Shown here one piece after another: positions 7,884 through 31,748 of a stretch of DNA of 64,000 nt (its first letter is position 1; each line of letters opens with the position of its first letter). The stretch is from Euprymna scolopes (Eukaryota): the NCBI GenBank assembly GCA_053919585.1, contig CM132788.1. One strand, given 5' to 3'. Under the pieces are notes generated by a model. The model ran no database searches. It was given only the letters and a program-made list of their open reading frames with translations, and was not told where the DNA came from. The position numbers were made by a program, and so were the translations under genes.

Positions 7884-7993
7884 CTTGGTTTTTTTTATTC
7901 AAAAGTAATGGACTAGTGAATTCAACGAGGTTGTTAGATAGTGCTCAATAAAAAGAGCTGATAATACTTGTTTATTGTTATATAAACATGCTC

Positions 7994-8120
7994 ACATCCC
8001 GCTGCTACAAACAGCCACTTGTTTCAATCAAACAACAGATATCATAAGGCAGCGACTTGACTATTCAAATGTTCATTGAATAACCTATTATTCAAGTGGC
8101 TGTTTGTAGCAGCGGGATGT
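7994..8120. mobile_element. Miniature inverted-repeat element (28-bp perfect inverted arms)
   Basis: acatcccgctgctacaaacagccacttg (7994-8021) / caagtggctgtttgtagcagcgggatgt (8093-8120). Confidence 0.7.
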
Positions 8121-8122
8121 AA

Positions 8123-8187
<65 letters not shown>

Positions 8188-10010: not shown

Positions 10011-10094
<84 letters not shown>

Positions 10095-10096
<2 letters not shown>

Positions 10097-10255
10097 TGTA
10101 ATAATTACTAAATACCTACAGACACTAGTGTTTCACCCTTTCTGGAATCATCAGTGCAGGGTGTCACGATTAACACCAGTGGATAGATTCGAACCCGGCA
10201 GCACAAGCAATCTCTGGCTTCATTAGCAAGGATCTAATCCATTCGGCTACCGTTA
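10095..10255 (-). mobile_element. tRNA-promoter + hammerhead SINE/retrozyme-like element
   Basis: Minus strand: A box TAGCCGAATGGATTAGA (10233-10249), B box GGTTCGAATC (~10187-10196), then hammerhead, AT tail and (TA)n. Confidence 0.75.
10115..10160 (-). ncRNA. Type I hammerhead ribozyme
   Basis: CCTGCA-CTGATGA-TTCC-AGAAA-GGGT-GAAAC-ACTAGT-GTC-TGTAGG: 6-bp stem I, canonical core, palindromic stem III, GUC site. Confidence 0.85.
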
Positions 10256-10399
10256 ATATTGAAATTTAAACATTTAGTTTTTGAATGCGTTCTAACGTCT
10301 GTCAGAGTGATCTAATAATTATATCATGATCTGCGCAGAAGAGCTAAATTTACCGATTTTTTATTTCAACTGAAAATGCTCACTAATTAGTTGCACTAT

Positions 10400-10862
10400 G
10401 AACGAATGACAAATATACTACAGATTTTAAAGCGAATTTGCAATTGGGGTCGAACCCATCGACCGGCACGCATTATCGTTTTCTACACTTACCATTGCGT
10501 AAGTCTGAAACGCTAACATTCCCAACCAAAAATAATTTAAATTAAATATAAAAAAATATTCTCATCGGCTTTTTTCAACAACCATTGGCTCTCTATGAGA
10601 ATCCACAATAAGCCGTTAATGCGATGTTTTCTTAGCTACTGTTTAACAGTATATATCTAAGTTTACTGTATATGTCCGCTAATTTGGTATCATACACAGG
10701 TCATTATTATCTGTCGCCTAGGAGTTGAAATACCAGGTTTCAGAGTTTAAGGTTACTTTGCAATTGTGTTCGAATCCTTTCACTTCAAGTAATCATTATT
10801 TCCTCCACTGAAAATTGCAGAAGCATGAAATGCTTGTGTCTGTATGTAAAAATAGTAAATAT
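10400..10862 (+). mobile_element. Two decayed tandem copies (~320-bp period) of the B-box + hammerhead unit
   Basis: ttgcaattg+g.tcgaa.cc at ~10438 and ~10758, each followed by a decayed ctga...gaaa motif; 10800-10860 matches 9950-10010. Confidence 0.5.
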
Positions 10863-10864
10863 TT

Positions 10865-10922
<58 letters not shown>

Positions 10923-11625
10923 CAGATATATATGTGTGTATAGATATATATATATCTTCATTCCCCCTTTATACTTTTACTTTGCAAGTGAGTTGCAGAT
11001 AGTAATGTATGTCTCTTCCTTTATTTTTCGCTGGCTTTCTGTATTTGAAAATGGCGATGGTACAGAAGATAACGGTTGCTAGACTTTTGATGAATATCAG
11101 AGCGGAGTATGGTTTTATTTCGTCCGAAGAATACATCCTCACAGACATTAACACTTTCTTGCAGAGATGGAATTAGTTCAATGTTCTTCGTCTGAACCAT
11201 CCTTAGTTTCAGTCTTGGCTATTCTGCTATCATTTACAGACCCTCTCTTTTTAGAACCACACAATTACACATATTCTGCAACAAATTTAATTAGATTACT
11301 TGGGTTATTATATATCATTTTTATCAAAAGGCGTACAAAAATATCTTGAGGTCTGCTGGATATTTATAAAAATGATATCGGATATTTCACCTGATTCATA
11401 ACTTGATAATTGTATAAATTCAAAAATGAAAATAGTAATGTTATTTACGTCTTACCTTTGGGTAGATATTTCGTTGTGAACCTAAGTTGGTGATAAACGC
11501 ATGTGTATTTATTCTCTCATCATCGGTTCTGTGGTGCCGCCATTATCTGTGAACTTGGCTAATCCTTGGTTTGCTTTTTTTTAAAGAACTTTTTAAATAG
11601 ACGGTTCTATCTAAGTTATTATTGT

Positions 11626-12157
11626 TGCACACACGCAAATGTATCTGGGGTTTCCCCAGATACGTGGCTGGCTTTGATTGGTTTAGCAGATCGCCAGACC
11701 ACAAGTGGTTGCCGTGACCTTGGATTGGCCCTAAAAGATGAAATCGACTTAAAATTTCTTATATTGATTGCTACAGAAAAAAAAATTTCCACGACGAGTA
11801 CAGAAAAAACTCTAATTATAGAAAGACAAAACAGAGAAAATCAGGGTTTTCTAACTTCTAAAAAATAATTTCATAAAAGTTACAGATCTTTTTACATATG
11901 TACAACGTTCAGTTCCTAAAACATTTCAAGTTTCATAAATCTCTCTTCTTCGTCACTGAATTGCTGATCATGATGGCGGAGAGGGGGTGACATTGGAGTG
12001 GATGTTATTCTCTCAAGATTTCGGCGAAAATCTGTCAATTTCGAGCGGGTATTAGCTTTTTAAACTAAGGTCAGGGGTTGGGGTCTGGCGATCTGCTGAA
12101 CCAATCAAAGCCAGCCTCGTATCTGGGGAAACTCCAGATACATTTGCGTGTGTGCAC
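11626..12157. mobile_element. Element with ~75-bp inverted termini containing an internal palindrome
   Basis: tgcacacacgcaaatgtatctggggtttccccagatac...gatcgccagacc versus its reverse complement at ~12082-12157. Confidence 0.7.
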
Positions 12158-13449
12158 TTCCCCAAATTGTCCATAGTTTCGAAAATCTGGGGCCAAAATG
12201 AAATCACTTTCACACGACATAAAGAGGTTAACCCCTATCATTCAGAAAGCCCTTGTCTGAAACAGGTGTCCTCGAGGCCACGATAGGTCTGGTTTCATCT
12301 CCACATTGTTCTGACATTTTGTGTCCCCTCATTCTGAAACAAGAAAACATATGCCTGGTTTTAACAATAATATATATATATAAGTACTTTGGATACCTAC
12401 TGTTGTCCGGGATTCAATTAGACAATCTTAGCATATTTGCGCGGTCTTCCTCAGGTCCCGGGGAGGGCTCAATCCACCCAATGGAGAGCAATACTCTCCC
12501 TCAAGACGATCATGTTACAAAGGAAAACATATCTACTTCTTATGCATAATAAATAAATACATGGATAGAGAGATGTGGAGAGAAGGGGGGAATAGACGTA
12601 TAAACTACTTGTCTTCTTACACTGAGCTACACTGTACACAACGGCTCATGCTGGGTCTCTAGGGGCGGCTACGTGTCGCGTCTGCTTTTCTCAATTAAAA
12701 AGGTCAAGCCTCATACTATATTTAAATGTCACTTGGTTTAATAGATTTCCGCTTTTAAGTCACCTCCAACATTTACGACGCCACTCACAAATTTCTACAC
12801 GATCATATAGCATGATGTCCTTGGCTTGTAACAGAAATAGACAGGTGTCCTGGTTCATTTTTGAGAAACGCCGCGTGTGTCTCAAGTGATTAAATGCTAT
12901 TAAATCGCTGAATGCAATTTTAATAAATGTAACTCCTTCCAACCGATGGATGTGCTTACCTATAAGATATGAAAAAAACTAAAAATAAATAAGAATATTA
13001 GCCAGGCGCAGATGTGCGATCACAGAGAATCAGCAAAGACACCCTGTGTTTGGCCTTGTTTCCTGGCTACGACAATGAACCTTATCTTCCACTTCTGGGC
13101 ATGTTGATAGTGCTTCATTTCCAGGTATGTTCATACAATCAGAGTGGGCAACTTTTGTCTGAAAGATTTGTGAGTAACAGTTTGACAGTTTGTCTGCCTA
13201 CTATATTCCACTTGACAATAAAGGAGATCTAACTCTTTGGTAGTGTTTAGAGTGACTGCTCTATCATCAGTTGTATAATATCATAATGGTTGAAGTGGCA
13301 TGTCGTGCATGGAAAAGGAACCTTCACTAATCATCTGTGGGCTTTACTGAGGGCATGAAGATGAAGAGTCGACTTATTGTTTATGTGTGCATGTTTGGTA
13401 TCATACACACACGTTGTCAAACATCTCTCACCTAAAAACTGAAACGTTT

Positions 13450-16350
13450 TTTTTAAATGACATTACGATCAAACCAGACGCACATCGAAACAAAACCAAT
13501 TTGTTGATGCTCGCATTCACAAATACCGGTTGACGCTGAACATATACAATATAGAAGCATTATTGCTAGAAACTTCCCGGATATCTTAGCGTTAAGTGAA
13601 ACTAACATACACTCTTCTATCTCTCACTTTGCCATAAGGACTCAGACAGACACATGTACAAACTTGGATTTTATATTCGTAACACTTTTCCCTTTCAAAC
13701 TAGAATCAGATGACCAGGTCTTCGTGTGCTTGAGACTAACCTTGCAATATAGCGTTAGTTATTTATATTTTCTCTTATATTATTCTCTACTGTTATCTCT
13801 CGACCTTGGACTGTGCCCTAATCAACCACGGTTCTAAAAGCATAGATGCAGTACTCTCCCAAGCTACTAGCGTGCAAGTACATGCATTTGGTGACTTTAA
13901 TGTCCACCACAGTTACACAAACACAGCTGTTTTTCTATATCCTATTCCTTGACACATTCTCTGATACAGATTGCCACGTTCCAAACCTGTCTCAGAAATC
14001 TTCAGGATCAGTATGCTTCATTTCTAGACCGACTTCTAACCACAATTTTTGAGGATTGTGTAACAAATGTCAGTAGCCCACTTGGGAATTTGGATCACGT
14101 TTTTGAGATTGGTAGACATCAACCTAAACTCTTGACCCAAAGTTGGAGAGCATTGTTCAAGACGACAAAATACTTCAAGAAGGCTGACTGGGAAACTCTC
14201 ACGAATTACATAATAGATGCCCACTGAGCAGTATCTTTTCTTTTAGCGGGACACATTGCAAATGATGCTACTGAATCGTTCAAAACAACAATTGAAGAGC
14301 ATGTTCCCACTCCACTCTTTCCAGTGGTTCATTTTTTATTTGTGCAGCTAACATTGCGCAAAGGTAGCATGCATTTTGCAGATTTATCCGACATGAGTCA
14401 AGTACAAATAGACAAAAATGCATGCAAGAGTGGCATAAGCGCAGCCAAGTGAAGGTACACTAAAATCAACTGACACCGCATTGAGTCACAGAAATTAGGA
14501 ACTCGCAATATCTGGATAATTTATAACAATATAGTAAATAATGGACAATCAACAATTTCTCCATTATCAAAAAATTATGAGGTTCTTTGCATGGCAATTG
14601 TTGTCCTAGTTGTCCAGCTGCTCGCCTCCGACTCCACTTTAGACCCAATGAATCACTCCCTCCTGAATTTCACTTTACTGACAAAAGCCACACTCGATGA
14701 TCTAAAAATCTCTCCTCCTCATATTCGTGATATCATAAAAAGTCTAGACATCTTGTAGGCGTGTGTACTTGATTACATCCTGTTGCTATACTATTAAAGA
14801 TCGCCACAGTTCTCTCTAAACTCTTCAACAAATGCCTTACTGAATCTTGCTTTCCTGACTGCTGAGAAATTGTAACTGTGGTACTAATTTTCAAGAATTT
14901 TGGCGAAAGAACTGACTCGCCTAATTATCGCCCCATTATCCTCCTTTCTCTCTTCGCCAAAATCTTTGTTTTTAATCAACATATCTCATAGATACTAAAC
15001 GTATTTCCGACCGACAGCATGGATTTAGACAAGCTCGTTCTATTTCAGATATCTTAACTGTAATCTCTAAACGTATATACCACGCACTGAAAAAATCAGG
15101 GTAAGCAAAGATAGTGGTATTTGATATATCTAAGGCGTTGACAGCGTTTGACAGATTTTCACATGACAATTAAATTATATAGGATTACTCGACAAATACT
15201 TTACATAATGAAATCATCATAAGCCAAAAGAAAAATCCAGGTTTCCCTCAATAGTCGTATGTCAACAAATATATATAAAAATGCGGGTGTGCAACAAAGT
15301 CGATTTTAAGACTTTTATTAACCTGACATTCATAAATGACCTACCTGATAAAATTACCTCTGAGATGGGTATATTTACTGATGACACCACGCGTTATAAC
15401 AGACGCGAGGATAAAACGAGTGAACAACAACACTTACGATTAGAGATGATTTGTTACCTGTTCGTGGATATTTTAAACTGATTTAGGGACGATGATTAAA
15501 GCTGGTTTTAAGTGAATTTGTTGCTGCAGACTTTCTTTTTACCTCCTCAATTTTAAGTTATTGTTTTAAATTGACGTGAACACTAGAACATTTCAATTAA
15601 AAGTCAAATATGAACAGGTAAAATTATAGAAGAATAAAAGACCAATGAAATGAGGTATAGGTTGTTTAAACAGCTGCATTAAATTTAGCTTAAATTTGTA
15701 GTTTTTGAAAAAATCACAAGTGCGGATTTTCTTTTTGCCGCCTGTGTACATTGACGAAACTGCCTAGCTTGCCGTTAATCATGTGGGCTTTTTCTATTCT
15801 TCTTAAAAATTACTCACGCCTGAGAGTATTCTATATCTACTATTCGCCCATGCATGGAGTATTGTTGCCACATCTGAGTGGGTGCATCTGCCACTAATCC
15901 ATCCCACTTAGACAGGGTCTGAAAATGTCCCCATCCTATTCGATCCCGCACTATAAACCCGACTTCAATCACCGCAAGATTGTATCTCCGTGCATGTTTT
16001 ACAAGTGTTTTAATGGTATGTGCTCCGACGAACTCCAAGCACCTGTACCCCTTTTGACGTAAATAACTCCGACTAATCGAATAAGCAGCAAAATCACACC
16101 CCTAAACTGTAGAGATCTCCAGATGCCGAAAATATTGTGTCTTTAATAATGTCTACCCTCAAACTGCTACACTTTGGAATTCTCTGCCGGAAACCTCGCT
16201 TTCTTAACAGTACTGACGTGCAGAAGTTCAAGTGTAATGTGAACAAATATCTATCTGCTCTACTCCCTATATAGTATCCCTGTAAATGTGGTCCTATATT
16301 CAAACGGCACTGTGCCTTGTTTGGAGCGAAAAAACATTAATAAAAAAGGA
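13450..16350 (+). mobile_element. Old degenerate CR1/Zenon-type LINE (family B): EN, RT and 3' end
   Basis: Fragments such as SSPLGNLDH, YFKKADWE, NYRPI, FINDLPD..GIFTDDTT, IRPCMEYCCHI; 3' ggcactgtgccttg + A tail; interrupted ~15450-15780. Confidence 0.8.
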
Positions 16351-17019
16351 AATATAATTCTATGGATTGGGTGCATGAAAGCATACGGTTCTGAATTCAA
16401 TTCTGGGAATGCCGAGTCTAGCTGCCAGTCTTTAAATATACAGCTGTAATCAAGTGTAACTAGTTGTTATATATCCATGTTTGAAGATGATTTATTCAGA
16501 TATACTAAATTTTGCTTTTTTTAGCATTATTAGTTCGAATGACATATTTAACTAAAATGGAAAAATATTAATATATTTGATTTCAATTAAAAATTGTTTT
16601 ATTTACTATTGTATTCATTTTAAAAAATTGAAATAATACTACCATTATTGATGGTACAAGTATTTTAGTATTCATAACAGCATAATAATAGCAGATAGTT
16701 AAATATATACATTGAATAATCCTTGAAGTTAAAATCTTTACCATAGGATTAAAACAAACAGACTTTTATACGCTGTGATGCGTGTCGAATGTCTCATTCG
16801 AAAATTGCCAGTCTTTTTCATCGTCAATAATGGGCGCCATTTTAGCAAAGGATCAGTTTAATTTGATCATTTTGAATTATAATGAAAATTACAATCTAAA
16901 GAAAATAAATTATATCGAAATTGACTGACATTATGTAGGGATTACCGTGAAGTAAGTGAACGGTCTCTATATTGTATTAAGTGTTTTTGAAGTTATACCC
17001 TGGAGACGTTGATAACTCA

Positions 17020-17082
<63 letters not shown>

Positions 17083-17089
17083 TTTTTGG

Positions 17090-17930
17090 GGGGGTCACGT
17101 TCACCCCTTATAAGGCATATCGCTACTTGGACGTAAAAAGCAACTATTTGGGACAATGCCTAGGTAAGATTAGCGAGATGTTGGGTTACGTTACATTTAA
17201 ACTTCTGCATATCAGTACAGCCAGGGAAGCAATGTAGCATGAAGGGAATTCCGAAGTCTAGCTGTTCAAGAAAAGACACTATTAGAATAAAAAGCGTTCT
17301 GACATTAAGGCACCTCAACTGTAAAGGGGTGAGATTTTATTGCTAAGCAGGTTTGTCGGGAATATGTACGTCGAGGGATACAAGTGCAACGAGTTCATCA
17401 GAGGACATTCATATTAAAATGTAAAACAGGCTTAGAGATGGGACAAAGGTTAGAGCTTAGTTGACAAAGTGGTACCTATCAGATTGAAAACTCCTTTTTG
17501 ACACTATCCAAGAGGAAGAGGTTAGTAGTACATGCACTAACCCGGATGTGGCAACAATATTCCATGCATTGGCGACTGTTGGCCTTGTAGAGGTACAGGA
17601 TGCTGTAAGTTTTCTTCTAACTCGATAGAAGGAATCCACCTTCTTTGCAGCAGCTTCTGCAATGTCCTCAGTGAATTTGTTCCAGTTTATATTGCCCGCA
17701 AATGTTAAGCCGAGGTGTTTGAAGGAAGAATTCTCATGTAGGGTGTTATTTGTCATGGATATAGGCGGTTGGAGATGCGTCTTGTAATTGTTAAAGGGGG
17801 GCAACTTAGTCTTACTAGCATTAAATGTTACCATTCATTTGCGGCCCCATTTCATTACGGTCTGGAAGTCATTTTATAGCGATTCTGTCATTATCTTAGA
17901 TTCATGTACATCCGTTCTTTCCTCTGTTAG
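17090..17930 (-). mobile_element. CR1/Zenon-type LINE 3' fragment
   Basis: VTFNASKTK..SSFKHLGLTF..W..AAAKKVDSFYR homologous to the RT C-terminus of 37679-39277. Confidence 0.85.
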
Positions 17931-18226
17931 AAATTTCAGAATGCAAGGGCAATAACCGCGTGATTTACAATCACGTGATTATTTCGACCAATGGTATTGC
18001 GTTGATTCAGTTGCTGCGGAGGATGCAGAAGTGGCGGGAATATTATGTTTCAAAAAACAGATTTCAATATGACGTCGTGCCAAGCAGACGCGCGTAATCT
18101 CGCTCCATGCCTAATGAACTAAGGCAGGGTTCTACCCCATTTATTTCTCCGCTCATTTAAATGCGGATACTAGCCAGAGGCTAAAATGTTCTACGGAATA
18201 ATTACTTCATTATCATTGCCCGCAAG

Positions 18227-18449
18227 GGGGCATATTATTTGATGAACATCGATCGCAATGTGCGTTGTTCGTATTCGACAGTCTGGAAAGACTTCGAGAA
18301 CCCTCAACCAATTCAACGAGCGGCCGCTTCTACCAGCATCTTCAACAAGAAGAAAACTACCTTCGCCTTTCAAGGCAAGAACTACCCGCCATTTGGCAGA
18401 AGCTGAAGAGGGCACTCTTTTGCAATATGGACTCATTTTTTACCCTTTG
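18227..18449 (+). CDS. Candidate exon or pseudo-exon resembling the C-terminal part of a TIR domain
   Basis: Open frame GILFDEHRSQCALFVFDSLE...ENYLRLSRQELPAIWQKLKRALF ending at donor TG|gtaaat; YL..x..W.KL..AL resembles TIR box 3 by eye only. Confidence 0.3.
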
Positions 18450-19049
18450 GTAAATAAAATTATTCTTGGATTTAAGGTGAGCCTTTGTTGCTTTTCTGTG
18501 TCTCTTTCATTCTGTCAAAGGCAAAAATGAGTAAGAGAATTTCTTACACCTCGTGCCTGTTTTAGAGCGTTGTATCATCAGCAAATATATTTTACTTGAT
18601 GCATGGAAGTTCTAAAAGGCCCATATATCAAACTGAAACATCTAGAATTCAAATTTTGCCAATATTTTGATCATGACCGAACTTGGCAAAGATAACTTTC
18701 CGATAAGATGCTGGACTTTATTCGCTTCAGCCTAGATCATATAGTGACTTACTATGATAGACAAAACAAAAGTTATCGTTGGAGGTTTCACTTTCACTTT
18801 TTCCATGACCACGATGTTTAAATTTTTTTAAGTCTATTCTTAGTTTTAATTTTTTTTTTTTTCAATTAGAATTCGAGTAAGGTTACCTGTTCCGAAAGTT
18901 ATATTACAGAGAGGAAGTAATCAGGCTTGCGTGGTAAATGAGCATGATTAACACTTTGACTAAGTCTAATGACGATTGGTCAAGCAATATGGACGCTAGA
19001 CTATATAAAAATGATGATTTCGATTGAAAATAAAGCTCGTCTTGGCGGG

Positions 19050-19250
19050 AGTAATAAAAATAAGAGAAATAGAAAAAACAACGTAAAATAAATATAAACA
19101 AATAACAGAAAAGTAGAACAAATTTAAAAAAATGGAAGGAAAACAATAAACAGAGGTAACACAATGAAGGAAGAAACGGAACAGTACATTGAAAGCAGGA
19201 GAAATCGAAACAATAAGCAAGAACACAAACGGGAATCGAAGCAAGTAAAA
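19050..19250. repeat. A/G-rich low-complexity tract
   Basis: Direct reading; explains the F/L-rich minus-strand ORFs. Confidence 0.8.
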
Positions 19251-20669
19251 CACGAGTTGTCTCCTCATGTGATCACTAAATAAAGTATATAATCATTAAT
19301 TACGACTAATTAAGTGTCTTTAAAATATATTTCGAAAAAACCCCCTCTTTTTTTCATTTTGAGAGTATTTTAAGTCGTATGGGCAATCCAAAATTTTCTT
19401 TGTATTACCAGCATTTCTTAATCTAAATCAATAACGCAGTGAATTGTTTATAACATTTAATTGATGAAATTTATGATGCGTAGAAAAATATCATTTCGGT
19501 GCATTTTATACCATGGAGAAATAAACAGATTTAAAAATAAAAGTGGGGGGCTTGATCAATTTAATTTCTGCGTCCATTGTTATCTAACCTCATGAAAACT
19601 AAACTGATTCTATGACAATCCAAACACGAACGGAATAACAGTCAAACGAAATGAGAGATTAAGTTCTTTTTTATTAACATCGGCAACCAGAAACCAAAAG
19701 CTGAAAGAGAAGAAAAGATGTGAAACTATGACGGAAACCAAGAAAGAATAATAGCCAAGGCAATTTAATATTTAAGTTAGTTTGAGTTTTAATAGCAAAT
19801 CTTCACGTAAAGTTAAATGTTTGGTGGAATGGAAATTTCAATTTAGATTTGAGTAACCCTACGTGTCCCGATATTAAAATTACACACAGAGAAAGCTGCT
19901 AGTCCAATTCATTAAGTCGAATTCAGTAGAGATAGAGAGGAACTTGATAGCTGCGTTTTCTCCCGACAGGAAAGAGGGTTCTGGGATTTACGCACACGCA
20001 TGTGTGTTATGTAGAACATTTAAACACCCCCAAATTTTTAAACCCACATTTATTTGTCGATGTGTCTTTCTTAATAACGTTTATCAATACTGTTGTTGAG
20101 AACAATCAGAAGACAATAAGAATTAAAAGTAAAAAGTTGATATTTCATTAGTCACTTCACCACTGTGACTACAAGAAATCGATTAGTTGATTGTGTCGGC
20201 GATGTGGACATACGATGGAGATGAAAGAACACTCTAGCATTGCTATAATAATAACAGATATCTTTAAGATGCACTCATGAAATTTGCACAATAAATATAC
20301 TATCGTTTACTTAATCGTGACCTATTGATTGATAAATAGATTCATTGACGCATCAATTATGCCAGACATAAGCGTAACAAAGTAGAAAAAATTATGATGC
20401 TTATGCATTTGTTCCTGCGTTTTTTTTTTTTGTTTTTTTTTTATAATATTAAAGTTAAATTAAATTTTTACGATATTTTTCTATATTGAATTGTTAGGTG
20501 AAAATACAGAATAGTTATGAAACACCTTTTTTCAATATGTTAAGAATGGCTTTCTAAATAATAACTGTTATTTCAGCGCAATAACAGATACATTAGTACC
20601 AAATTTGTGTTTTCAATTTAAGTATGACGGGCTGGCAGACAGCCTCTTCTGCAGATGCTTGCAAGTTAA

Positions 20670-21750
20670 CCAAAAGCAAAATGTAATCGGGCAGAAGATG
20701 AGAGTAAGTGAATAGCAAAAATATAGAAACAGGTAAAAGGAAATAGCGTGAGAAAAAAAACAGAAGCAGAAAAGGTAGAAAACGAGAAGTACGGAAAGAA
20801 GGAAGAGAAGAAAGGAAAGACAAAAATATGACTAATTAGAACGAAACAAAAGAAAACTAGGAGAAAGAAAGGACAGAAGCAAGAAGAAAGAAAAATGATG
20901 TAAAAACATAATAAAAAAAAGTAATGAAAGAAAAAGAAAGCAAAAGGAAGAAATAAAGGAAACAGAGAAACCATAAAAAATGAATTAAAGAAAAGAACTG
21001 AATATAGAAAAGAAAAACGGTATAAAAAATGAGAGACTCCATCATTAATACTCTGGGCCTCTGATTTCTGCCCATCAACCACTACGCTTATGAGCCTATC
21101 AGAGATAAATGATTTAATAATTGAGAAAACATTTCCAGTTATACCGTAACTGGAAATCTTGTGAAGTAGGCCCTTGTACCATACCTTATTGAAGGCCTTT
21201 GATATGTCAAGAGCAATTGCCCTAGAAAGGAAGCCTTTGTCTAGAGATTCACTAATCCTATAAGATATAACCGTTAGCACATCTGCTGTAGATGAAGCAC
21301 CCCCTTAAGTAAGGCACTTAATAACTCTCCAATACTAACGATTACTACGATACTATCCCATTGGTTAATGTACACGCAATAACCCTTATCCCCGAGTGGC
21401 TTCCGGATCTTTATAAGTGGTGACTTCCATGTAAAAAAAAATTAGAAAAAAAAATGAAAACTAGAAAATAAACAAAAAATGAACGAAAGAAAAAAAGAAA
21501 GTAGAGGAAATAAGGAATGAAAGAAAGAAGGAAAGAAGAAAAGAGGAATAAATAAAGAAGCAGAGAAATACAGACCACAAGAATGGATAGAATAATGAAA
21601 CAAAAAGAAAATATAAAAATTGAAACGGAAACGAAAGAGAAATAAAGAAAGGTAGCAGCAAGAAGAAAGTAGAACAGTGACAGAAAGAAAGAAACATAAA
21701 AGCAAAAGATATAAACAGAAAAAGAGAAATGTGGTAAATAGGAGAAAATA
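20670..21750. repeat. A/G-rich low-complexity tract interrupted by a LINE insertion
   Basis: Direct reading. Confidence 0.8.
21036..21440. mobile_element. Rearranged family A LINE insertion: RT segment on - (21036-21292) joined to 3' UTR/poly(A) on + (21297-21440)
   Basis: LTVISYRISESLDKGFLSRAIALDISKAF on -; ccccttaagt...cccttatccccgagtggcttccgg...poly(A) on +. Confidence 0.85.
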
Positions 21751-22080
21751 ATTCGTGTCAACATTTATTTACTTTTAGACAAAGATAAATGGTTTCCCAG
21801 TAAGACATGACAAAAGGTCAAAGCCCGAAATAATCTCTGTCCTCTCGATATGACACGCATTATAATAATTAGGTGACCACACAATTCCCAATTTTTACAC
21901 AAGTGAATCACTAGAGTTGTTGACCATTTATGTGTTTATTAACGGAGATAATCACATTCGCTTCTGGCTTTCGAACAATCGAATAAGAAATTCGTTTAGC
22001 AGTTTTACACCAGAAGATGATAAACTACTTATTTACACCATTTTTGGCATCACATGATTATTAATTCGTAATTTCAAGGC

Positions 22081-22154
<74 letters not shown>

Positions 22155-22155
<1 letters not shown>

Positions 22156-22330
22156 ACAAATATTAATGAATAGCACGTACATATTCTGTTTTACGATTTT
22201 CCTTTTTATCTTCCCATATCTCCGAATAGTCCTTTTTGTGTTCTTCTCGAAATTGTATATGTTGGATCCATAATCGCGAGCGCTTTCGACAGAAGTACTT
22301 CTATCATCCTCAGGCATATTGTAGAAATAA
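22155..22330 (-). mobile_element. Penelope-like pseudo-LTR remnant (hammerhead followed by an ORF N-terminus-like peptide)
   Basis: Hammerhead then ..RTIRRYGKIKRKIVKQNMYVLFINICP, resembling Penelope/Poseidon ORF N-termini; runs into (TA)n. Confidence 0.55.
22272..22320 (-). ncRNA. Minimal type I hammerhead ribozyme
   Basis: TGC-CTGAGGA-T-GATAGAAG-TA-CTTCTGTC-GAAAGCGCTC-GCG: 8-bp stem II, palindromic AGCGCT in place of stem III. Confidence 0.7.
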
Positions 22331-22546
22331 ATGTAGAGATTGTTTTTTTAATTTACTTATATATATTTTTTTTCATAGTCACGTGGTAATTTGTTACAAG
22401 TTAGGTGGGCGGCTTTTTTTTTCACACATTTGCATCGATTGTCCCCGGCTAAAACCAAAATATAAAGTTTCGCATGGGTTCGAATATCCTATATATAAAG
22501 GCAAAATCTTTTTAACCAAATATATATATATATATATATATATATA

Positions 22547-22788
22547 GTCATCCACATACAGTACTGTTTCGCAGCTCACCAGTGCGGCTAGACAGGCAAC
22601 TATCTCAAGCCAGGATTGAAACCCGACCGTTTGTACGGCAGTCAAGGCTCCTAACCATTACGCTATTGGCGGCTGCTTGAACGAGTAGTGAGTTTAACGA
22701 TGTTTTAACATCGTCCGAAATACCTCCGCTCGATTTGTTTACACAAAGAGCGTCGCTTATATGCTAATGGTAATTCGTTTTTTCACTT
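22547..22788 (-). mobile_element. tRNA-promoter + hammerhead SINE/retrozyme-like element flanked by (TA)n on both sides
   Basis: A box TAGCGTAATGGTTAG (22651-22665), B box GGTTTCAATCC (22613-22623), hammerhead 22552-22587. Confidence 0.75.
22552..22587 (-). ncRNA. Type I hammerhead ribozyme (A6G core variant, very short stem II)
   Basis: CCGCA-CTGGTGA-GCTGC-GAAAC-AGTACT-GTA-TGTGG: 5-bp stem I, palindromic stem III. Confidence 0.7.
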
Positions 22789-23147
22789 ATATATATATAT
22801 ATATATATGCATACATAAATATATACAGAAAGAAGTTTGTGTTTACCATAACCTTTTTTACGCAAGTATAAATCATGTAGAATATCTGCATGAATATAAT
22901 TATGCGTATAATTAACTTAAGATGATCGTGCCATGAGAAAACCTAAAAAATAATAAGGAATTAATTAAAATGAATGTTTAGAAGAAGATGCAAATTAGCT
23001 AGATTTTTTTTTTTTTTTTTTTTTGCAGATGAATGCAATTCTACAGCGCATATGTAACAAAGTTGTATTTTCTTAGGAAATAAATAGCAAGAAAGGGAGT
23101 TTGAATATGAATACACACAAAAACAAATTCATGGGAGTATAGATAGA

Positions 23148-23825
23148 TACAGGGTGGAACGATAATTGTGTCACCGTAAAGAAAAACAACAATACAGCAT
23201 TGTTTTAAAACTTTTGTTGAAAAAATCAATTACGGTAATTTGATTATGGAGTAAGGCTGACACATATTCAATGTAGCCGCCTTCAGCCTCAATCACCGCC
23301 TCGATACGGGTTTGGAACTAGGAGCATGCCTTTTCCACAAGTGCCAGTGGGGGTTCGGCGAATACTCGGCAGATGGCGGCAATCAGACGTGCTTTCGTGT
23401 TGTGGGAGATCATGTTAGTGATGTTCTCAACGTATAATAAAACGAAGTAGTCCAGCAGATTCAGGTCGGGGGAGAGGGAAAGCCCAGCAATGAGAGAAGG
23501 GTACAACCTCATTTTGGAGCCCAGCCTGCGTCTCTTTGAACTTGTGGGCCGCCGCTGAATCCTGCTGCGACACCTCGGGTCTGCCAGCGGCCACATTATT
23601 GCCCCAGGGGATCACCACAATCTTCAACACATCCAGGTATTTTCTTTGGTGTTGACTTTCAAGCCGACTTCGAATAGGTTAGGTTGCATGATGTGGCCCT
23701 CCGTCGAAACCACACAAAAAACGATAATCGTAGCCGGAAACTTTGTTTTCATCACCCTGAACACGTCCTTGATATTCGTGGCAATCCAGCGACGCATTTT
23801 AAGGGTGCTGGTAATGGTCCTGTTG
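23148..23825 (-). mobile_element. Degenerate Tc1/mariner transposon, maT (DD37D)-like 3' half
   Basis: TKFPATIIVFCVVSTEGHIM, QQDSAAAHK, SPDLNLLDYFV, RIEAVIEAEGGYIE; TA-CAGGGTG terminus at 23148. Confidence 0.85.
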
Positions 23826-24521
23826 TCATAACTTGGATCGGTTAAAAGCATAGAAAATACAGCGGCGCATCACCGCTCTCGCTCATGTAACATTGTGTCA
23901 TTTTTAGACATGACAGAAATGGGATTTGTACAGAACTGACCAACTAGTAGATGATTTGCAGCAAACAAGAAAACCGGTTTTCATCGAACGAAAATGGAAT
24001 TGCATTGTATTTATTGCATTTATTCAGGTGACAATTTTATCCTTTCGCCTTTCATATCATTCAAACACGGTAGTATTTGAATGATATGGGTAGTTTTAGT
24101 CATTTAGAACTGCTTTAAAGCTTCAACGCTCATTCATTTTTCAACCAAATTTGAAACAAGTATTACAGTTTATTGATCACCTTCTCGGCTATATTGTAAA
24201 AAGAAAATTCAATTTTTTCGTTCAGTAAAACAAAATTTTGATAGATTTTCTAGTGTTCAAAGTCGTAAAAATATGGAAGGAGGTGAACAACGCTTTTTAT
24301 GACTGATTTCCATAGGAACCATGTCGCTTCGGCGACTACTGTTGCTATTAATTCACTGTTGTCGAGAAAGGGGAATTAACAAGTGAAAGAGAGAGGGGGG
24401 CTTTTATTGAAAGCAGACGAGTGCCGTACATTGTTATTACATATGTGTGTATGGAGACAAAAAATAAGACCGAAATTTAACCAAGAACAAGTGAATTTGT
24501 GTGAAGCCTGGAAATATCATG

Positions 24522-24854
24522 GATTACAATAGAAAAATGCGAGCATGAAAAGTAATATGGTTAAGCTTAAACATGGAAAAGTAAAGAACTAGTTATTAAA
24601 ACTGGAAAAGAAAAGGTATATAGATATTCTAGTAAAAAAAATAATAAATTAAAATAGTGCAGCATTAAGATTTTTTAATTCAATTTATAGCATTATATAA
24701 TCAATTCTTAATGCTGCAATATTTTAAGTTATAAATTTATTGTATTTTTTACTAGAATATCTTGTCCTTTCATTTTCCAGTTTTAACAACTAGTCCTTTT
24801 TTTTCCATGTTTAAGCTTAATCATAGTACTTTTCGTGCTCGCATTTTTATGTTG

Positions 24855-24858
<4 letters not shown>
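24522..24858. mobile_element. Foldback/MITE-like element with ~150-bp imperfect inverted arms
   Basis: attacaa.a.aaaaatgcgagca.gaaaagta...gcagcattaaga versus tcttaatgctgc...tacttttcgtgctcgcatttttatgttgtaat. Confidence 0.8.
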
Positions 24859-24926
<68 letters not shown>

Positions 24927-25920
24927 TAAAAAGGAACAAACCGTATTATGTGTTCATCAACGTTTCATCTTACTTTCGAGACTTCCTCTGGATGAATGAG
25001 ATTAAGAAACAAAAAATGCCAGTGCAAAATATTTGAAAATGTTTCACGTGCACAGTGTGACGCAGTTCTATTTCAGAGAAACGGAAAAAAAAACCGTTGG
25101 AAATTCAAAAAGGAGGGGGAGGGCTGGCGCTGTTAAAAAGAAGAAATTTTAGTGACGTCATATAGTCGTTAATGTAATTTTAAAACTATGAACGCAAGTT
25201 AATATTCTTATTGGGAAAAAGATATATCTGTTGAAATTCAAATATAAGTTTGTAACAGAAATAAAATGAGTGTTTTTTTATGTAATTTATTGATTGAGAT
25301 TATGTGTTAATTATTACAGGGTGTGTTTGAATGGCGTGAGAAAGTTAACCTGTGTCTACAGTTAAATAATGTTCTTTTAATAAAAGTTTACTTATTAATG
25401 GGGCTATGTTATAGAAACCTCCACGTTGTTTAATAGTGCTTGAAATTGCGATAAGCGCAGATTCAAGAAGTCTCCGACGTGGTTTATTTGAAATAAATTT
25501 AACTACTTTTGCTTGTTTAAAGTCAAAGGTGTGGTTATGTTGCAATTAATGAGAGAATAATGCAATTAGACAATTGCTATTTTTTATATCTCTTTTATGT
25601 TCATTGAGCCTTTTTCCAATTTACGCTGAGTTTCACCAACGTATTTATGATGGCAATTATGGTAAGGAATAGTGTATATACCTCCATCGGAAACTGGTTT
25701 GTTATAGAGAGGTTTCGTAGTTTTTAATATATGTTTTATGGTTAGTGATGTGGTTTGTACGATAGGAATTTTTAGTTTTTTTAATGTGTTATAGATTATT
25801 GTATTATTGGTGTGTGTAGGTAAAAGAAGATGTCTGTTTATGAGAGAAAGGTCTGGTGTGTATGATTTATTATTATCATTTATTCTGGAAAATATTTGTG
25901 TGGCTTTTCTCTTAGCATTC

Positions 25921-27254
25921 AATATGGGCACTATCAGCACCTCCCACATAAAGAACTCCGGATATTTACTGAACAAAATAAAAAACATTAACGTACAAAA
26001 CAAAACTATACACAGCTTAGATATAACATCATTATATACTAATGTCCCCATTAAAAAATGCTTGAATTTACTCCTTAAACATTAAAAAAAAATTAACATT
26101 AGCTGACCTTTTCCTCCCGACACTCTTATAAAAATCATCAGACTTATAACTAACATGACTTACTTTCATTTCAATAACAATTTCTATAAACAAAATTTTG
26201 GTCTTCCTATGGGTAACCCTCTTAGTGGAGTATTAGCTTGCCTTTTCTTAGAATTCCTAGAATCTGGTCCTTTCAAATTCAGATTACCTCCAAACACAGA
26301 ATATTTTAGATACATTGACGACATTTTAATTTTTCTTCCTGAAAATACGCGCATAAATATCATTAGAGACAAATTAAACTCAGTCGAACCTTCCATAAAG
26401 TTTACCTGTGAAACAGAAAACAATAACTCAGTACCTTTTCTTGACATACTTATAATAAAATCCAATAATAAACTATCCTTCAAAATTCACCGCAAAACCA
26501 CACACAAAAATGATCACATACATTTCTATTCACACCATAATAATAAAATAAAAACAGGGATGATAATTGGTTTCTTCTTACGCGCTTTCAGAATTTGCAG
26601 TCCTGGATATCTGGACGAAGAATTCAAATACCTCACAAACATTTCGAAAACCTTGCAATATCCGACATATTTCATATTGAATGCTAAGAGAAAAGCCACA
26701 CAAATATTTTCCAGAATAAATGATAATAATAAATCATACACACCAGACCATTCTCTCATAAACAGACATCTTCTTTTACCTACACACACCAATAATACAA
26801 TAACCTATAACACACTAAAAAAACTAAAAATTCCTATCGTACAAACCACATCACTAACCATAAAACATATATTAAAAACTACGAAACCTCTCTATAACAA
26901 ACCAGTTTCCGATGGAGGTATATACACTATTCCTTACCATAATTGCCATCATAAATACGTTGGTGAAACTCAGCGTAAATTGGAAAAAGGCTCAATGAAC
27001 ATAAAAGAGATATAAAAAATAGCAATTGTCTAATTGCATTATTCTCTCATTAATTGCAACATAACCACACCTTTGACTTTAAACAAGCAAAAGTAGTTAA
27101 ATTTATTTCAAATAAACCACGTCGGAGACTTCTTGAATCTGCGCTTATCGCAATTTCAAGCACTATTAAACAACGTGGAGGTTTCTATAACATAGCCCCA
27201 TTAATAAGTAAACTTTTATTAAAAGAACATTATTTAACTGTAGACACAGGTTAA
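25921..27254 (+). pseudogene. Penelope-like RT + GIY-YIG endonuclease, disrupted
   Basis: SLDITSLYTNVP, QNFGLPMGNPLS, YFRYIDD, FLDILI, GGIYTIPYHNCHHKYVGETQR, RRLLESALI; in-frame stops at ~26083 and ~26104, frameshift ~26990. Confidence 0.9.
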
Positions 27255-27601
27255 CTTTCTCACGCCATTCAAACACACCCTGTAATAATTAACACATAAT
27301 CTCAATCAATAAATTACATAAAAAAACACTCATTTTATTTCTGTTACAAACTTATATTTGAATTTCAACAGATATATCTTTTTCCCAATAAGAATATTAA
27401 CTTGCGTTCATAGTTTTAAAATTACATTAACGACTATATGACGTCACTAAAATTTCTTCTTTTTAACAGCGCCAGCCCTCCTCCTCCTTTTTGAATTTCC
27501 AACGTTTTTTCCCCCGTTTCTCTTAAATAGAACTGCGTCACACTGTGCACGTGAAACATTTTCAAATATTTTGCACTGGCATTTTTTGTTTCTTAATCTC
27601 A

Positions 27602-27645
27602 TTCATCCAGAGGAAGTCTCGAAATAAAGATGAAACGTTGATGAA
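27602..27645 (+). ncRNA. Minimal Penelope-type hammerhead (U4A core variant); mirror copy at 24953-24996 (-)
   Basis: TTCATC-CAGAGGA-A-GTCT..AGAT-GAAACGTT-GATGAA: 6-bp stem I, palindromic ACGT instead of stem III. Confidence 0.7.
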
Positions 27646-28039
27646 CACATAATACGGTTTGTTCCTTTTTATTTTCTCTATTTTGTCGGAATATTATTTC
27701 TATCATTTTCATCATATATATATATATATATATATTAATTATTCTTTTTATGCCTATAGACATTAATATTTTATGCTTTCGCAATTATCAGTGCAGAAAG
27801 TTACAATTACTACTAATCAGGAGATATGAGCTCAGCTACAAAGTCACCTTTCACTCCATTTGCTGGGACATTACTTCCGGGCCAGCAACAATTGCCACAA
27901 GAATTAATGGAAATCAAACACCTATAAATATCAACGTCGGGTACAAAAGTTAAGCAGTCAATAGTGCAGTTGTAGACATTGCATGCCGCTATTCGAATGT
28001 CTTTATTTTCCAGGGAGTCGTAAACGTAATAATCTTAAA

Positions 28040-28260
28040 AGGGCTTATAATTTACCCACCCACTCTAATAATACAATAATTTGCAACACACTTAACAAAC
28101 AAGTAATTCAAATAATACCAACCGTAGTACAAACTATGAAACAAACATTAAAAACAACAAAAAACAACAAAACATTTCCAAAACAAACTTATAACCTGTA
28201 CAAGTATATATACTGTCCAATGCTGTACTTGTCATCAAATTGGTTATACAATTGATACAA
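28040..28260 (+). mobile_element. Older Penelope-like fragment
   Basis: LPTHSNNTIICNTLNKQVIQII..TMKQTLKT homologous to LPTHTNNTITYNTLKKLKIPIV of the adjacent element. Confidence 0.7.
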
Positions 28261-28444
28261 CTGAATGGCGCTAGAGAAAGAGTTTAGTGAACAGAAATTT
28301 GGGTTAGTAAACCAAACAAATAAGAGTATACGCCTCCTCCTCTTTCGCTGTGACATTTTTGTGAATCCTCCAATAAAAGACCATCCGGTTAAATAATAAA
28401 AGTATGAGAGCTGATCTTATCGATTTAATTCAATTAAAAACTGT

Positions 28445-29845
28445 GTACAGACCAATAAGTCTCCTGTGTGTCATGAGTAAGTTGCTGGAATCCATATTAA
28501 ATAGAGAAGTAGTCAACCACCTCAGCAGAAACAACCTTCTTAGTGACACACAATATGGTTTCCGTTCTGCTAGATCTACGGCAGATGTGCTAACGGTTAT
28601 ATCTCATAGGAATAGTGAATCTCTTGACAAGGGCTTCCTCTTTATGGCAATTGCTCTTGACATATCAAAATCCTTCGATAAAGTATGGCATAAGGGTCTA
28701 CTTTACAAGATTTCCAGCTACGGTATAACTGGAAATGTTTTCTCAATTATTAAATCATTTCTCTCTGATAGGCTCATAAGAGTAGTGGTTGATGGGCAGC
28801 AATCAGAGACCCTCAATATTAATGCTGGATTCCCTCAGGGGTTCATCCTGGGCCCAACCCTCTTCCTGATCTACATCAAGGATCTCCCAAAACACACACT
28901 TAAATCATTTGTTGACATCTATGCTGATGACACGACCATCTATGGCAACACATCAAAGGCTGTAAATGACAAAAGTTATCTCTGATTCTCTCTCTCCTCT
29001 GATCTCGAGCGCGTGGTACAGTGGGGGAGGAGGTGGCTGGTTACTTTTAATGCATCTAAAACCAATCAACCACACATCATCAACTCTATGATCCCCATCT
29101 GGCATCAATTGAAATGGATTTCTTTCGACTAGGGGAAGCTCCACGCTTTGATAAGCTTCTGGGCTTGACATTTATTCCTGACCTGAAATGGAACACGTAC
29201 ATCAAGTCTGTTGCCTAGGTCACTGGAAAAATGGTAGTATCCTTCTACCGCTCCAGAAGATATCTCACTGCTAATGGAATTCTCTACTTATATAAAAGCC
29301 AAGTACGTCCAAGAATGGAGTAGTTGTCACATCTGGGCAGAAGCTGCTATAAACACTCTATCCTGCCTTGACAGAGTTCAAAATAGGCTTAGTGGGGAAT
29401 ACCCTTTCCTCTTCCCTGCAACCTCTCTCTCATAGGAGAGATGTTGCGAGCCTGTCTTTGTTTTATCGTTACTTCCATGGCAGGTGCTCGTCTTAGCTCT
29501 AATCTCTTGCCCCTCCCCGATCTTTCACGAAAAACACCCGTCTAGCTGAAACCACTGTCAAAAATTTTCCCCACTCTTTATCTGTGCCAAAACCTAAATG
29601 TAGATTCCATGAACAAAGCTTCTTTCTTAGAAGTGCACGCCTGCGGAAATCTGTTCCGTCTGCCTGTTTTCCACCTGACTACAACTTGGATGTCTTCAAG
29701 TCCAACATAAACAAATTCCTGCTGAACCGCCCCCTTAAGTAGACACTTTATTAAATCTCAACATTAACGTACTGTACACGCAATAACCCTTATCCCCGAG
29801 TGGCTTCCGGGCCTTGATAAGTGGTGACCATCTTGTAAAAAAAAA
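28445..29845 (+). mobile_element. 5'-truncated CR1/Zenon-type LINE (family A)
   Basis: YRPISLL..QYGFRS..LDISKSFD..PQG..YADD, several stops, 3' UTR and poly(A). Confidence 0.95.
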
Positions 29846-30116
29846 CGTTCTAGTAAATTGATCCCCCATATCATAACCACTCGATAAGAGCATGCACACC
29901 CCTCTCATATAAAGATTTTTTCAATTATCAATCAATTATTATGGGAACTGAGTTTTCCGCACGTGGAGACACAGACACAAATGGAGGACCTTGAGCTAAA
30001 TACGATTATTGCTCTTCAACTCTGGTAACACCATACCTTGCCACCAGGAGGCGATGCAGCCACGTTCACTCGTTTTGTTTATTTCTTTCTCTTTTAGCTC
30101 AGAATTCTTAACAGGT

Positions 30117-30660
30117 GAAGATGTGACGATAACGCACCTGCCTTGACAGAGTTCAGAATAGACTTCGTAACCTCGTAGGGAATGCCCTTTTCTCTTCCCT
30201 GCAACCTCTTTCCCACAGAAAAGATGTTGCGAACCTGTTTCTGTTGTATCGTTATTTTCATGCGAAATGCTCGTCTGAGCTCCAATCTATGGTTCCCCCT
30301 CGCCAAAATTTCACAATAAACACTCGTTTGGCTGTAAACACTATCAATAATTTCCCCCACTCTCTATCCGCGCCTAAACCTAAACGTAGACTCCATGAAC
30401 AAAGCTTCTTTCTAACAACTGCACACCTGTGGAACTCTTCCGTTTTTCTGCTTTCCAGCAGACTACAATATGGCCATCTTCAAGTCCAATGTAAACAAGT
30501 TCTTGATGAGCCGTTCTCCTTAAGTAATCCAATTTACCAAATTTATGCTTCTAACGATTACTATATTGTCCTTTTGACCACTGTACACTCTTAACCCTTA
30601 TCCTCGAGTGGCCACTGGGCCTTGACAAGTGGTTATTCCTTTGTAAAATAAAAGAAAAAA
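30117..30660 (+). mobile_element. CR1/Zenon-type LINE 3' end (family A, close to the 37.4-kb copy)
   Basis: YRYFHAKCSSELQSMVPPRQNFT..; 3' UTR ccttatcctcgagtggccactgggccttg + A tail. Confidence 0.9.
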
Positions 30661-30825
30661 TCTTTACAAGTTCGATAACAGTTTTCCATCGATTCGGTCC
30701 TCAATACAGCATCACTATAAGTAAACGAGTAAAACGATAAGGAACATAGGAATCTCTAAAAACCAAGACTCTTTGTGATGATCATATAGAACTTTGAATT
30801 TTGAAAGGTATTTATGTTGAATGAT

Positions 30826-31070
30826 CGACCCATTTGGCATAATAGTAAATATACTCCTTATTGGTCCAGAGATCGAGTTTCAATCTTCGGTCGAGTCGTA
30901 CCAATTTTTTTTTAATAGGATTTTATGCCTCTTTGCTAAACACAGAATCTTATGAGCGGATAGTCAAGGGTGTGGATTAATCTTGAGAATGGAGCGACGC
31001 CCTCCTCTACACTTTGGTGTAAACGCTTATGTAAAAGGAACCTACTGGTATAGTCGCACACTTAGCTTAG
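30826..31070 (+). mobile_element. Degenerate tRNA-derived SINE
   Basis: Decayed A box (tggcataatagtaaa) and B box (gtttcaatc), followed by a ggtcgagtcgtacca...tgcctctttgctaaaca body resembling invertebrate SINE conserved domains. Confidence 0.5.
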
Positions 31071-31099
31071 TAAATGTTCTGTTAGGGGATACTATAATA

Positions 31100-31630
31100 T
31101 TGTATTATTTGGATTCATCGGACTACAGTTCTCATCTTGAGTGTCATTTTCAACAACATTTCGGTCGATGTAACCTCCGACCTTAAGTGTATCTTGTCAA
31201 CTCGGGACTGTTTCTGTCGAACGCGGGAATTTGGACAGAATTCTGAAGGGAACCCTTTATTTACTTCCCAAAATTCGTAATAGAACTGTCCACAAGGACC
31301 CGTGGTTCAGTGGTTAGAGCACTTGAAAAAACTTATTGTAAAATTATATTATCCTGAAGTTTTATGGTTCAATTCTCAGTGTGCGTGACCGAAAAATACA
31401 GTTGCGAATTACTTAGTACCTCTATCCAGTCATGGTTGACAGAACGAGAGCATGCTACTCACGTGAAGTAAATAAAGGATTCCGTTCGAAATTCCGTCTA
31501 AATTATCCAGTTTGACAGAAACATTTCCGAGTTCGACAAGATACACCTGAAGAAGGCCGGATGTTACATCGACCGAAACACAGTGAAAATGACACGCAAC
31601 AGTAGTACGAAGAATCTAAATAAAACGAAT
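31100..31630. mobile_element. Inverted hammerhead-bearing arms (31100-31268 / 31465-31630) flanking a tRNA-like Pol III promoter
   Basis: Arms are imperfect reverse complements; the centre has A box TGGTTCAGTGGTTAGAGC (~31303) and B box GGTTCAATTC (~31366); the right arm has CAC-CTGAAGA-A-GGCCG..CGACC-GAAAC. Confidence 0.7.
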
Positions 31631-31748
31631 AACCAATCCTCATCAGCAAAATGCAGAAACGTATAATATTTATATTTCTATAAAAATACAACTAAAACTT
31701 TATTAATTAAGCAACTGAAAAAGATACATATAAAATTCTCAGTATAAG

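Follow-up and report, generated by a model that had tools for sequence, protein, structure and literature searches.

RNA polymerase III (Pol III) normally makes short non-coding RNAs, and its uncapped transcripts are usually poorly translated. Retroelements that carry hammerhead ribozymes are known from several systems. Among Penelope-like elements (PLEs), Drosophila virilis Penelope and Anolis PAc have one open reading frame (ORF) for a reverse transcriptase (RT) with a C-terminal GIY-YIG domain, a pseudo-long terminal repeat (pseudo-LTR), a minimal hammerhead where the ORF starts, a pair of 3' ends (the tail) inside the ORF start and inverted 5' copies (PMC2377424; PMC11167929). The tail has been explained by internal RT initiation (PMC11167929), PLE hammerheads have been described as minimal and weak (PMC4209133), and the D. 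virilis Penelope promoter is like that of long interspersed nuclear elements (LINEs), besides overlapping an intron (PMC2377424). In Sm-alpha and Sj-alpha of Schistosoma, each tandem unit carries Pol III boxes ahead of a type I hammerhead, and in the cut monomer the promoter comes to lie at the 3' end (PMC6765202; PMC2770079). Metazoan non-LTR retrozymes are tandem units of 150-400 nucleotides (nt) that contain a type I hammerhead, are predicted to form stable circles and originate in, or depend on, PLEs (PMC7229834; PMC7761336; bioRxiv 10.64898/2026.07.22.740005). The accessible portions of these reports name no partner for Sm-alpha (PMC6765202; PMC2770079) and describe metazoan retrozymes as seemingly devoid of both a promoter and a conserved partner motif (PMC7761336; PMC7229834). 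Here we analyze a stretch of 64,000 nt (the window; GenBank GCA_053919585.1, contig CM132788.1) of the 5.9-Gb genome of Euprymna scolopes (G000), which holds three elements, labelled F1, F2 and F3, with A and B boxes ahead of a hammerhead-like core. F3 is part of an autonomous PLE, namely its pseudo-LTR, and the sequence of this PLE accords with transcription of a coding RNA by Pol III; F1 and F2 are Sm-alpha-like retrozymes that are likely mobilised by PLEs of the Hydra clade.

Three box-bearing repeat families

The A box, B box and hammerhead-like core of all three elements were present where the initial annotation, made from the window sequence, had placed them (Table 1); they were called with consensus patterns that we take to represent these features. 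A box pair followed by a hammerhead matched once across ten 400-kb shuffles and twice in 400 kb of real sequence, and the strict box pair was found 10 times in real sequence and 0 times in one shuffle. That the elements belong to repeat families was borne out genome-wide, with 3304 (F1), 2117 (F2) and 5229 (F3) first-look candidates, 40 of which were scored for each family. Forty 10-kb stretches at fixed round positions of the genome held 3, 5 and 16 sites, respectively, which scales roughly to 4e4, 7e4 and 2e5 copies, related subfamilies being counted too. The boxes do stand ahead of the hammerhead in each element, but the single layout proposed for all three does not extend to F3, whose B box is separated by about 170 nt from a minimal PLE hammerhead that has no stem III.

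The heads had also been read as different tRNAs captured by different hammerheads. Several distinct box-bearing heads are indeed found on different hammerheads, but distinct tRNA origins are not demonstrable, and no head is recognized by either the Rfam tRNA model or ARAGORN. An Rfam scan of the window detected neither tRNA nor hammerhead, and the Rfam hammerhead models matched F1 and F2 only under the gathering score (five loci). A search of the genome for a source tRNA returned almost only a tRNA-Thr array and no model matched the heads; the isotype assignment was therefore dropped and none is claimed. The array itself, of tRNA-Thr(TGT) genes (G000:C11, ~1.68-2.16 Mb, L151-L180), has a 144-bp period with 20-21 genes per 3 kb, which carry C in the T-loop where T is usual.

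F3 is the pseudo-LTR of an autonomous PLE

F3 belongs to a Penelope/Poseidon-type PLE and is not a short interspersed nuclear element (SINE). Sequence 5' of the head is common to some F3 copies, and a search with it led into a frame with GIY-YIG and RT, upon which the idea of F3 as a SINE with a separate partner was dropped; where a tRNA-derived SINE would end, F3 continues into its own ORF both upstream and downstream. Copies with the order pseudo-LTR, ORF, pseudo-LTR exist, the tail being the start of the ORF, and the order of features in F3 and in a sister family (see below) is ORF stop, A box, B box, ATG, hammerhead within the frame and tail. Like Penelope and PAc, both families have a single ORF that encodes a PLE-type RT and, at the C terminus, a GIY-YIG domain, without a zinc-finger linker, together with a pseudo-LTR, partial tandems, an inverted 5' copy, a tail and a minimal hammerhead. 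The inverted copy abuts the 5' end of F3 in 28 of 48 loci. Among 61 F3 3' ends, 40 were short and 21 long, with 2 at (TA)n, so that the proposed preference for ending at (TA)n applies to F1 and F2 (see below) but not to F3. A second box-like pair inside F3 overlaps the ATG and was not treated as a promoter.

Homologues carry RVT_1, while the Pfam match to GIY-YIG is weak (E 0.026). A protein search retrieved 579 relatives, the best of them 78% identical, and in a tree of 88 RT cores F3 and its sister grouped with P0002 and P0007-P0009 (support 0.997); the Poseidon-type clade was assigned from motifs, the tree holding no named reference. An intact 835-aa PLE ORF of another subclade was also seen in tandem (L146, G000:C36).

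The sister family (G000:C20, 49.07-49.09 Mb) was found in the same genome via the full-length relative P0007. It is young, with an intact 852-aa ORF, a tandem period of ~2750 and copies 97-100% alike. It shares 68% nucleotide identity with F3 and has its A and B boxes at the same place; the ATG comes 114 nt behind the A box, and the hammerhead lies within the frame. In its loci L265-L267 and L277 (G000:C20), the A-tract between stop codon and A box measures 15-35 nt in tandem copies and ~5 nt elsewhere. Boxes at the same place recur in L297, an intact tandem PLE from another organism (a metagenome contig), with two sites of four T (T4) per unit and no T5.

A further family, F6 (6442 candidates), has a head and hammerhead related to those of F3 in tandem units of 385-422 nt, with no ORF nearby. 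The heads of F3, the sister and F6 are alike (z 5-8), and F6 aligns to the start of the F3 ORF with a score of 87 against a shuffled maximum of 77. F6 is a deletion derivative of such a PLE pseudo-LTR that has turned into a tandem retrozyme; as a direct derivative it fits the view of retrozymes as derived from PLEs (bioRxiv 10.64898/2026.07.22.740005). An extra hammerhead in one F6 copy (L134) was apparent only and is not conserved.

Sequence evidence for probable Pol III transcription of F3 and its sister

Runs of T4 or longer are the canonical terminator of Pol III, and degenerate runs also work (PMC3141230). Since F3 combines the promoter boxes of tRNA genes with almost no four-T run over 3 kb, its PLE is likely transcribed by Pol III. 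At the level of sequence, the arrangement is that of a type 2 Pol III gene: A and B boxes in register, few T4+ runs downstream and a putative start just before the A box. More specifically, the ten longest of 30 F3 copies held 0, 0, 1, 1, 3, 0, 2, 1, 1 and 1 runs of T4+ in 2.2-3.0 kb, where 5-7 are expected from base shuffling, and each of these runs lies in a different context. The 2739-nt sister unit has no T4 (P ~0.046-0.06), as is true of 28 of 30 cores. Its ORF contains 4 TTT where a codon-aware null predicts 16.4 (reached in 0 of 3000 draws), its Phe codons are divided 1:15 between TTT and TTC (P 0.005), and interrupted runs (T3VT/TVT3) number 0 against 5.9 expected; C, G and A runs are near expectation. 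In both families it is the sense strand that avoids T runs. Box-less PLEs of the same genome carry 4-14 T4 per kb, including 24 in 2.6 kb in another PLE family of the window, 38 in 2.8 kb in L127 and 4-12 per kb in Hydra-clade ORFs. In related ORF stretches from metagenomes (56 of 79 loci, those with longer matches; more distant relatives from few samples), the median ratio of observed to expected T3+ runs was 1.36, compared with 0.29 and 0.43-0.70 among the F3 and sister sequences; 14 of the 56 reach a hammerhead core downstream, and L297 is one of the 56.

The 5' ends of F3 copies point to the same place. Among 28 copies chosen by their 3' part, 11 reach the A box and 8 of these have their 5' end between -15 and +5 (P 4e-5; corrected 6e-4); of the non-tandem sister copies, none ends between -444 and -25. 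Compared with Penelope and PAc, the pseudo-LTR of F3 and its sister has A and B boxes, apparently in place of a LINE-like, intron-overlapping promoter, and no T-rich tract, and is followed by a body free of T runs.

We propose that Pol III would initiate from the boxes of an upstream pseudo-LTR and, meeting no terminator, transcribe the whole ORF, and that the resulting uncapped RNA would be translated, perhaps aided by cleavage of the hammerhead. The RT may begin at either of two sites just within the beginning of the ORF, so that copying from the first would yield the SINE-like copies of ~350 nt found genome-wide.

Several observations weigh against this proposal. Taken alone, the absence of T4 is marginal (P 0.05-0.06 in the sister, 0.05-0.09 in F3), and with codon usage fixed its scarcity in F3 is not significant (P 0.36-0.40). 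Both families are T-poor (19-24%), an ordinary LINE of the window is also depleted of T4 against the codon null (12 versus 22), and the sister copies count as one observation because they are 97-100% identical. Among the control stretches, which were drawn from few samples, 2 of 56 lack T4, and one of 741 nt has a T3+ ratio of 0.24, the next lowest being 0.79. Among non-tandem sister copies an end near the A box is rare (2 of 26). L297 is not depleted of TTT (0.95) and lies close to the F3 group in the RT tree, but is not resolved as its sister. In all three families, the heads offer boxes and nothing that the tRNA models recognize, and the polymerase, start site, translation, cleavage and circles of F3, F1 and F2 are all inferred.

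These points lend some weight to an explanation that we nevertheless regard as unlikely, in which F3 and its sister are ordinary Pol II PLEs. The boxes would then be left over from a captured tRNA-like sequence or act as a TFIIIC insulator, and the scarcity of T runs would reflect a strand rich in A and poor in T, or avoidance of U-rich signals for RNA processing. In keeping with it, the PLE promoters studied so far are located within the pseudo-LTR, have an intron overlapping them and look like TATA-less promoters of LINEs (PMC2377424; PMC8557442), T4 absence by itself is marginal, and another LINE is depleted as well. However, the depletion is confined to T runs of at least 3 and to interrupted runs, equally T-poor control PLEs are mostly not depleted, the boxes have been kept across the 68% identity between F3 and the sister and recur in L297, and 5' ends cluster at the A box.

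We give still less credence to a scheme in which Pol III makes RNA templates only, either short and SINE-like or full-length, and the protein comes from separate Pol II read-through of host genes. That short copies pile up at the A box would suit a Pol III template, and the poor translation usual for uncapped Pol III RNA would favor a separate source of protein. On the other hand, the entire ORF is free of terminators, which short templates would not need, and the ATG stands 114 nt after the A box. Hammerhead self-cleavage alone can moreover drive cap-independent translation (PMC13725137).

F1 and F2 are tandem retrozymes of the Sm-alpha kind

F1 and F2 extend 140 nt (to 10390) and 130 nt (to 22796) 5' of the A box and are therefore 5'-truncated tandem units rather than tRNA-headed SINEs. 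Their copies share a fixed 3' end, 15-35 nt beyond the predicted cut; the 5' ends vary and lie a long way upstream of the A box. The A and B boxes are internal and precede the hammerhead. Because the copies hold sequence before the promoter as well as after the cut, the template was presumably a multimer or a circle. Direct tandems were found at 7 of 30 F1 loci and 19 of 30 F2 loci, and the last unit ends at (TA)n in 21 of 30 F1 loci by script (22 with the window copy, which was mis-scored) and in 25 of 30 F2 loci. The initial annotation had viewed all three elements as non-autonomous, self-cleaving SINE or retrozyme families; F1 and F2 can indeed be placed as Sm-alpha-like non-autonomous retrozymes, whereas F3 is part of an autonomous PLE. 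Further families or subfamilies with boxes and a hammerhead, some of them in tandem, were seen at L024, L014, L121, L086, L114 and L062.

The conserved core and covarying stems expected of such ribozymes were recovered. The hammerhead core is intact in 20 of 30 F1 and 19 of 30 F2 copies. In 15 copies of the F2 clan, 96.6% of cells pair, and there are two compensatory pairs, in stems I and II, and none in stem III, which gives modest support, the copies being related. The stem III palindromes ACACTAGTGT and ACAGTACTGT are as annotated, as are the (TA)n ends of both elements; one subfamily retains the palindrome with changed letters and another breaks it. When folded as dimers, F1 and intact F2 form a hammerhead-type duplex with a shared stem III of 10 bp, and no such duplex formed for the window copy of F2 or the F3 clade. 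Circular monomers fold better than 40 shuffles (z -4.2 for F1, -2.7 for F2). Neither unit contains T4 (P 0.04 and 0.34), a weak test as the units are short. The type I hammerheads annotated in the window copies hold for F1; by contrast, the F2 copy has a core reading CTGGTGA and an 8-nt deletion in stem II and does not fold as a hammerhead, and F3 has lost its cleavage triplet. A hammerhead-like core with a long stem II also lies just downstream of F2 (window 22250-22330, minus strand), with no second copy among the loci collected.

As to expression, 598 of 9.2 million reads from one polyA raw-read RNA run fell on the F2 unit with a strand bias, the strand convention being unclear; junction reads were indistinguishable from genomic tandems, and three RNA contig runs indicated presence only. 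To be set against active ribozymes are the broken core of about one third of F1 and F2 copies and the shortened stem II common to 11 of 30 F2 copies, both in query-biased samples, as well as the absence of a read-end pile-up at the F2 cut site in that one polyA run.

Hydra-clade PLEs as the candidate partner of F1 and F2

A motif, GCTC...TTGAGCAY, lies just 3' of the ends of F1, F2 and several other hammerhead families. It forms a short hairpin in seven folded examples, with a GCTC/GAGC stem in five. The same motif occurs twice in autonomous Hydra-clade PLEs, each time just past a 3' end. One family of carriers runs into an endonuclease with a CxCX5C linker; among its 25 loci, 15 have their (TA/CA)n end immediately ahead of the motif, and 7 run past it to a second (TA/CA)n end. 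In a young sister of this family, a 723-aa frame includes DKT and CxCX5C, and the motif is present twice between the hammerhead and the ATG. The assignment to Hydra rests on the CxCX5C linker, DKT and (TA)n insertion, all of which were found in the autonomous carriers, as were the CxxC and CxH motifs; the carriers share these features with the clade as described (PMC8557442), nearly all members of which insert in (TA)n (PMC8557442). Neptune, an earlier candidate for the carrier, was replaced by Hydra on the clade definition (PMC8557442). In L449, a Hydra-clade PLE, the RWK motif reads KWK. Neither the shared motif nor dependent box-bearing retrozymes are mentioned in the accessible part of the Hydra-clade description (PMC8557442). 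Hammerhead-bearing ends also occur as fold-back pairs, several of which contain the Hydra motif, in the window (6800-7018) and at L143, L008, L023 and L027.

The initial annotation had named the window's own Poseidon-type PLE, at 24.9-27.7 kb, as an example of the mobilising elements. PLEs are likely the partners of F1 and F2, but this one was set aside as a less likely candidate: its only similarity to F1 is a single 26-nt AT-rich match (E 0.007), and the motif is missing from five other PLE families, this one included, each represented by one sequence. Comparison of 3' ends with Penelope families thus links F1 and F2 to the Hydra clade and not to the window element. Its family is nevertheless young, has intact members elsewhere and likewise ends at (TA)n or (CT)n, so that it keeps a small probability as a partner. 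The family (L374-L393) has a hammerhead core of CAGAGGA instead of CTGANGA, with a compensatory change in stem I. That all three elements are non-autonomous tRNA-hammerhead SINEs or retrozymes moved by this PLE is thus very improbable, in spite of the short, SINE-like form of most F3 copies and of the youth and (TA)n ends of the PLE family, given that both ends of F3 lead into its own RT-endonuclease ORF, which refutes the idea for F3, and that the downstream motif of F1 and F2 occurs in Hydra PLEs and is absent from this family.

From the shared motif and target, F1 and F2 are likely mobilised in trans by Hydra-clade PLEs. Pol III would read from the boxes of one unit through the next, the hammerheads would excise monomers, which may circularise, and the Hydra-clade RT, placed by the GCTC...TTGAGCAY hairpin, would start 15-35 nt past the cut site and insert at (TA)n.

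Features of the window

Coordinates are collected in Table 1. The window also contains a 44-bp satellite (43730-63989; ~461 copies, 87% matches) and a decayed LINE with endonuclease and RT frames (37373-40493, minus strand), fragments of which lie at 28445-30659.

Table 1. Coordinates of the hammerhead-bearing elements and related features in the window.
Feature	Position	Strand	Remark
F1, 5'-truncated copy of 343-bp tandem retrozyme unit	10096..10390	-	
F1 A box	10239..10249	-	
F1 B box	10186..10196	-	
F1 type I hammerhead	10115..10160	-	palindromic stem III; predicted cut after GUC at 10121
(TA)n at 3' end of F1	10023..10095		
F2, 5'-truncated copy of 284-bp tandem retrozyme unit	22547..22796	-	
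F2 A box	22655..22665	-	
F2 B box (variant)	22613..22624	-	
F2 hammerhead	22552..22587	-	core change and shortened stem II in window copy; family cut predicted after GUA at 22557
(TA)n at 3' end of F2	22520..22546		
F3, 5'-truncated copy of autonomous Poseidon-type PLE	31266..31661	+	end of 3' untranslated region, boxes, ORF start, hammerhead, tail
F3 A box	31303..31313	+	
F3 B box	31366..31375	+	
Likely start codon of F3 PLE	31432..31434	+	~130 nt after A box; the sister's intact 852-aa ORF begins at the corresponding ATG
Minimal PLE hammerhead inside reading frame	31544..31585	+	no stem III; cleavage triplet lost in window copy
Inverted copy of F3 3' end	31098..31267	-	adjoins F3 5' end; PLE insertion signature
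Fold-back remnant, pseudo-LTR of young Hydra-clade PLE	7949..8123		
Separate Poseidon-type PLE with inverted duplicate	24855..27741	+	young family; ends at (TA)n/(CT)n; rich in T runs; box pair not seen

Discussion

Judged from sequence, it is fairly probable that the 2.7-3 kb RNA of the F3-type PLE is made by Pol III from its A and B boxes and that F1 and F2 are transcribed likewise and mobilised by Hydra-clade PLEs. We see about an even chance for the fuller history, in which a Penelope lineage, in more than one organism, would have swapped its Pol II promoter for a tRNA-type Pol III promoter, purged terminators from 2.6 kb of coding sequence, come to translate an uncapped, ribozyme-bearing RNA, made its own SINE and spawned Sm-alpha-like retrozymes.

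F1 and F2 add new members to a known kind of element, and a partner clade is newly suggested for them. They differ from Sm-alpha in comprising several unrelated families in one genome, in their fixed (TA)n ends and in the motif that ties them to Hydra-clade PLEs, and from metazoan retrozymes in having both promoter boxes and a motif that points to a partner. A parallel to F3 in its expression may be R2, the coding RNA of which is made by a polymerase other than Pol II and has a 5' ribozyme and likely cap-independent translation (PMC6765202), as we infer for F3. R2 borrows the Pol I promoter of ribosomal DNA and has a ribozyme like that of hepatitis delta virus (PMC6765202), whereas the promoter of F3 is its own and of Pol III type. 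Neither a PLE with Pol III boxes nor a motif shared by Hydra PLEs and retrozymes is described in the literature searched, with Repbase, Dfam and subscription journals outside its scope.

If true, Pol III transcription of a natural protein-coding retrotransposon would cut across the customary division into LINEs made by Pol II and SINEs made by Pol III. PLE hammerheads, called unexplained in the literature compared, would also gain a role, and promoter-bearing retrozymes such as Sm-alpha a route of origin from PLE ends. The intact young sister family makes the Pol III reading testable now. In addition, the occurrence of a Hydra PLE motif in many (TA)n hammerhead repeats provides a candidate partner clade and a candidate element for positioning the RT, which according to a review of retrozymes had been missing.

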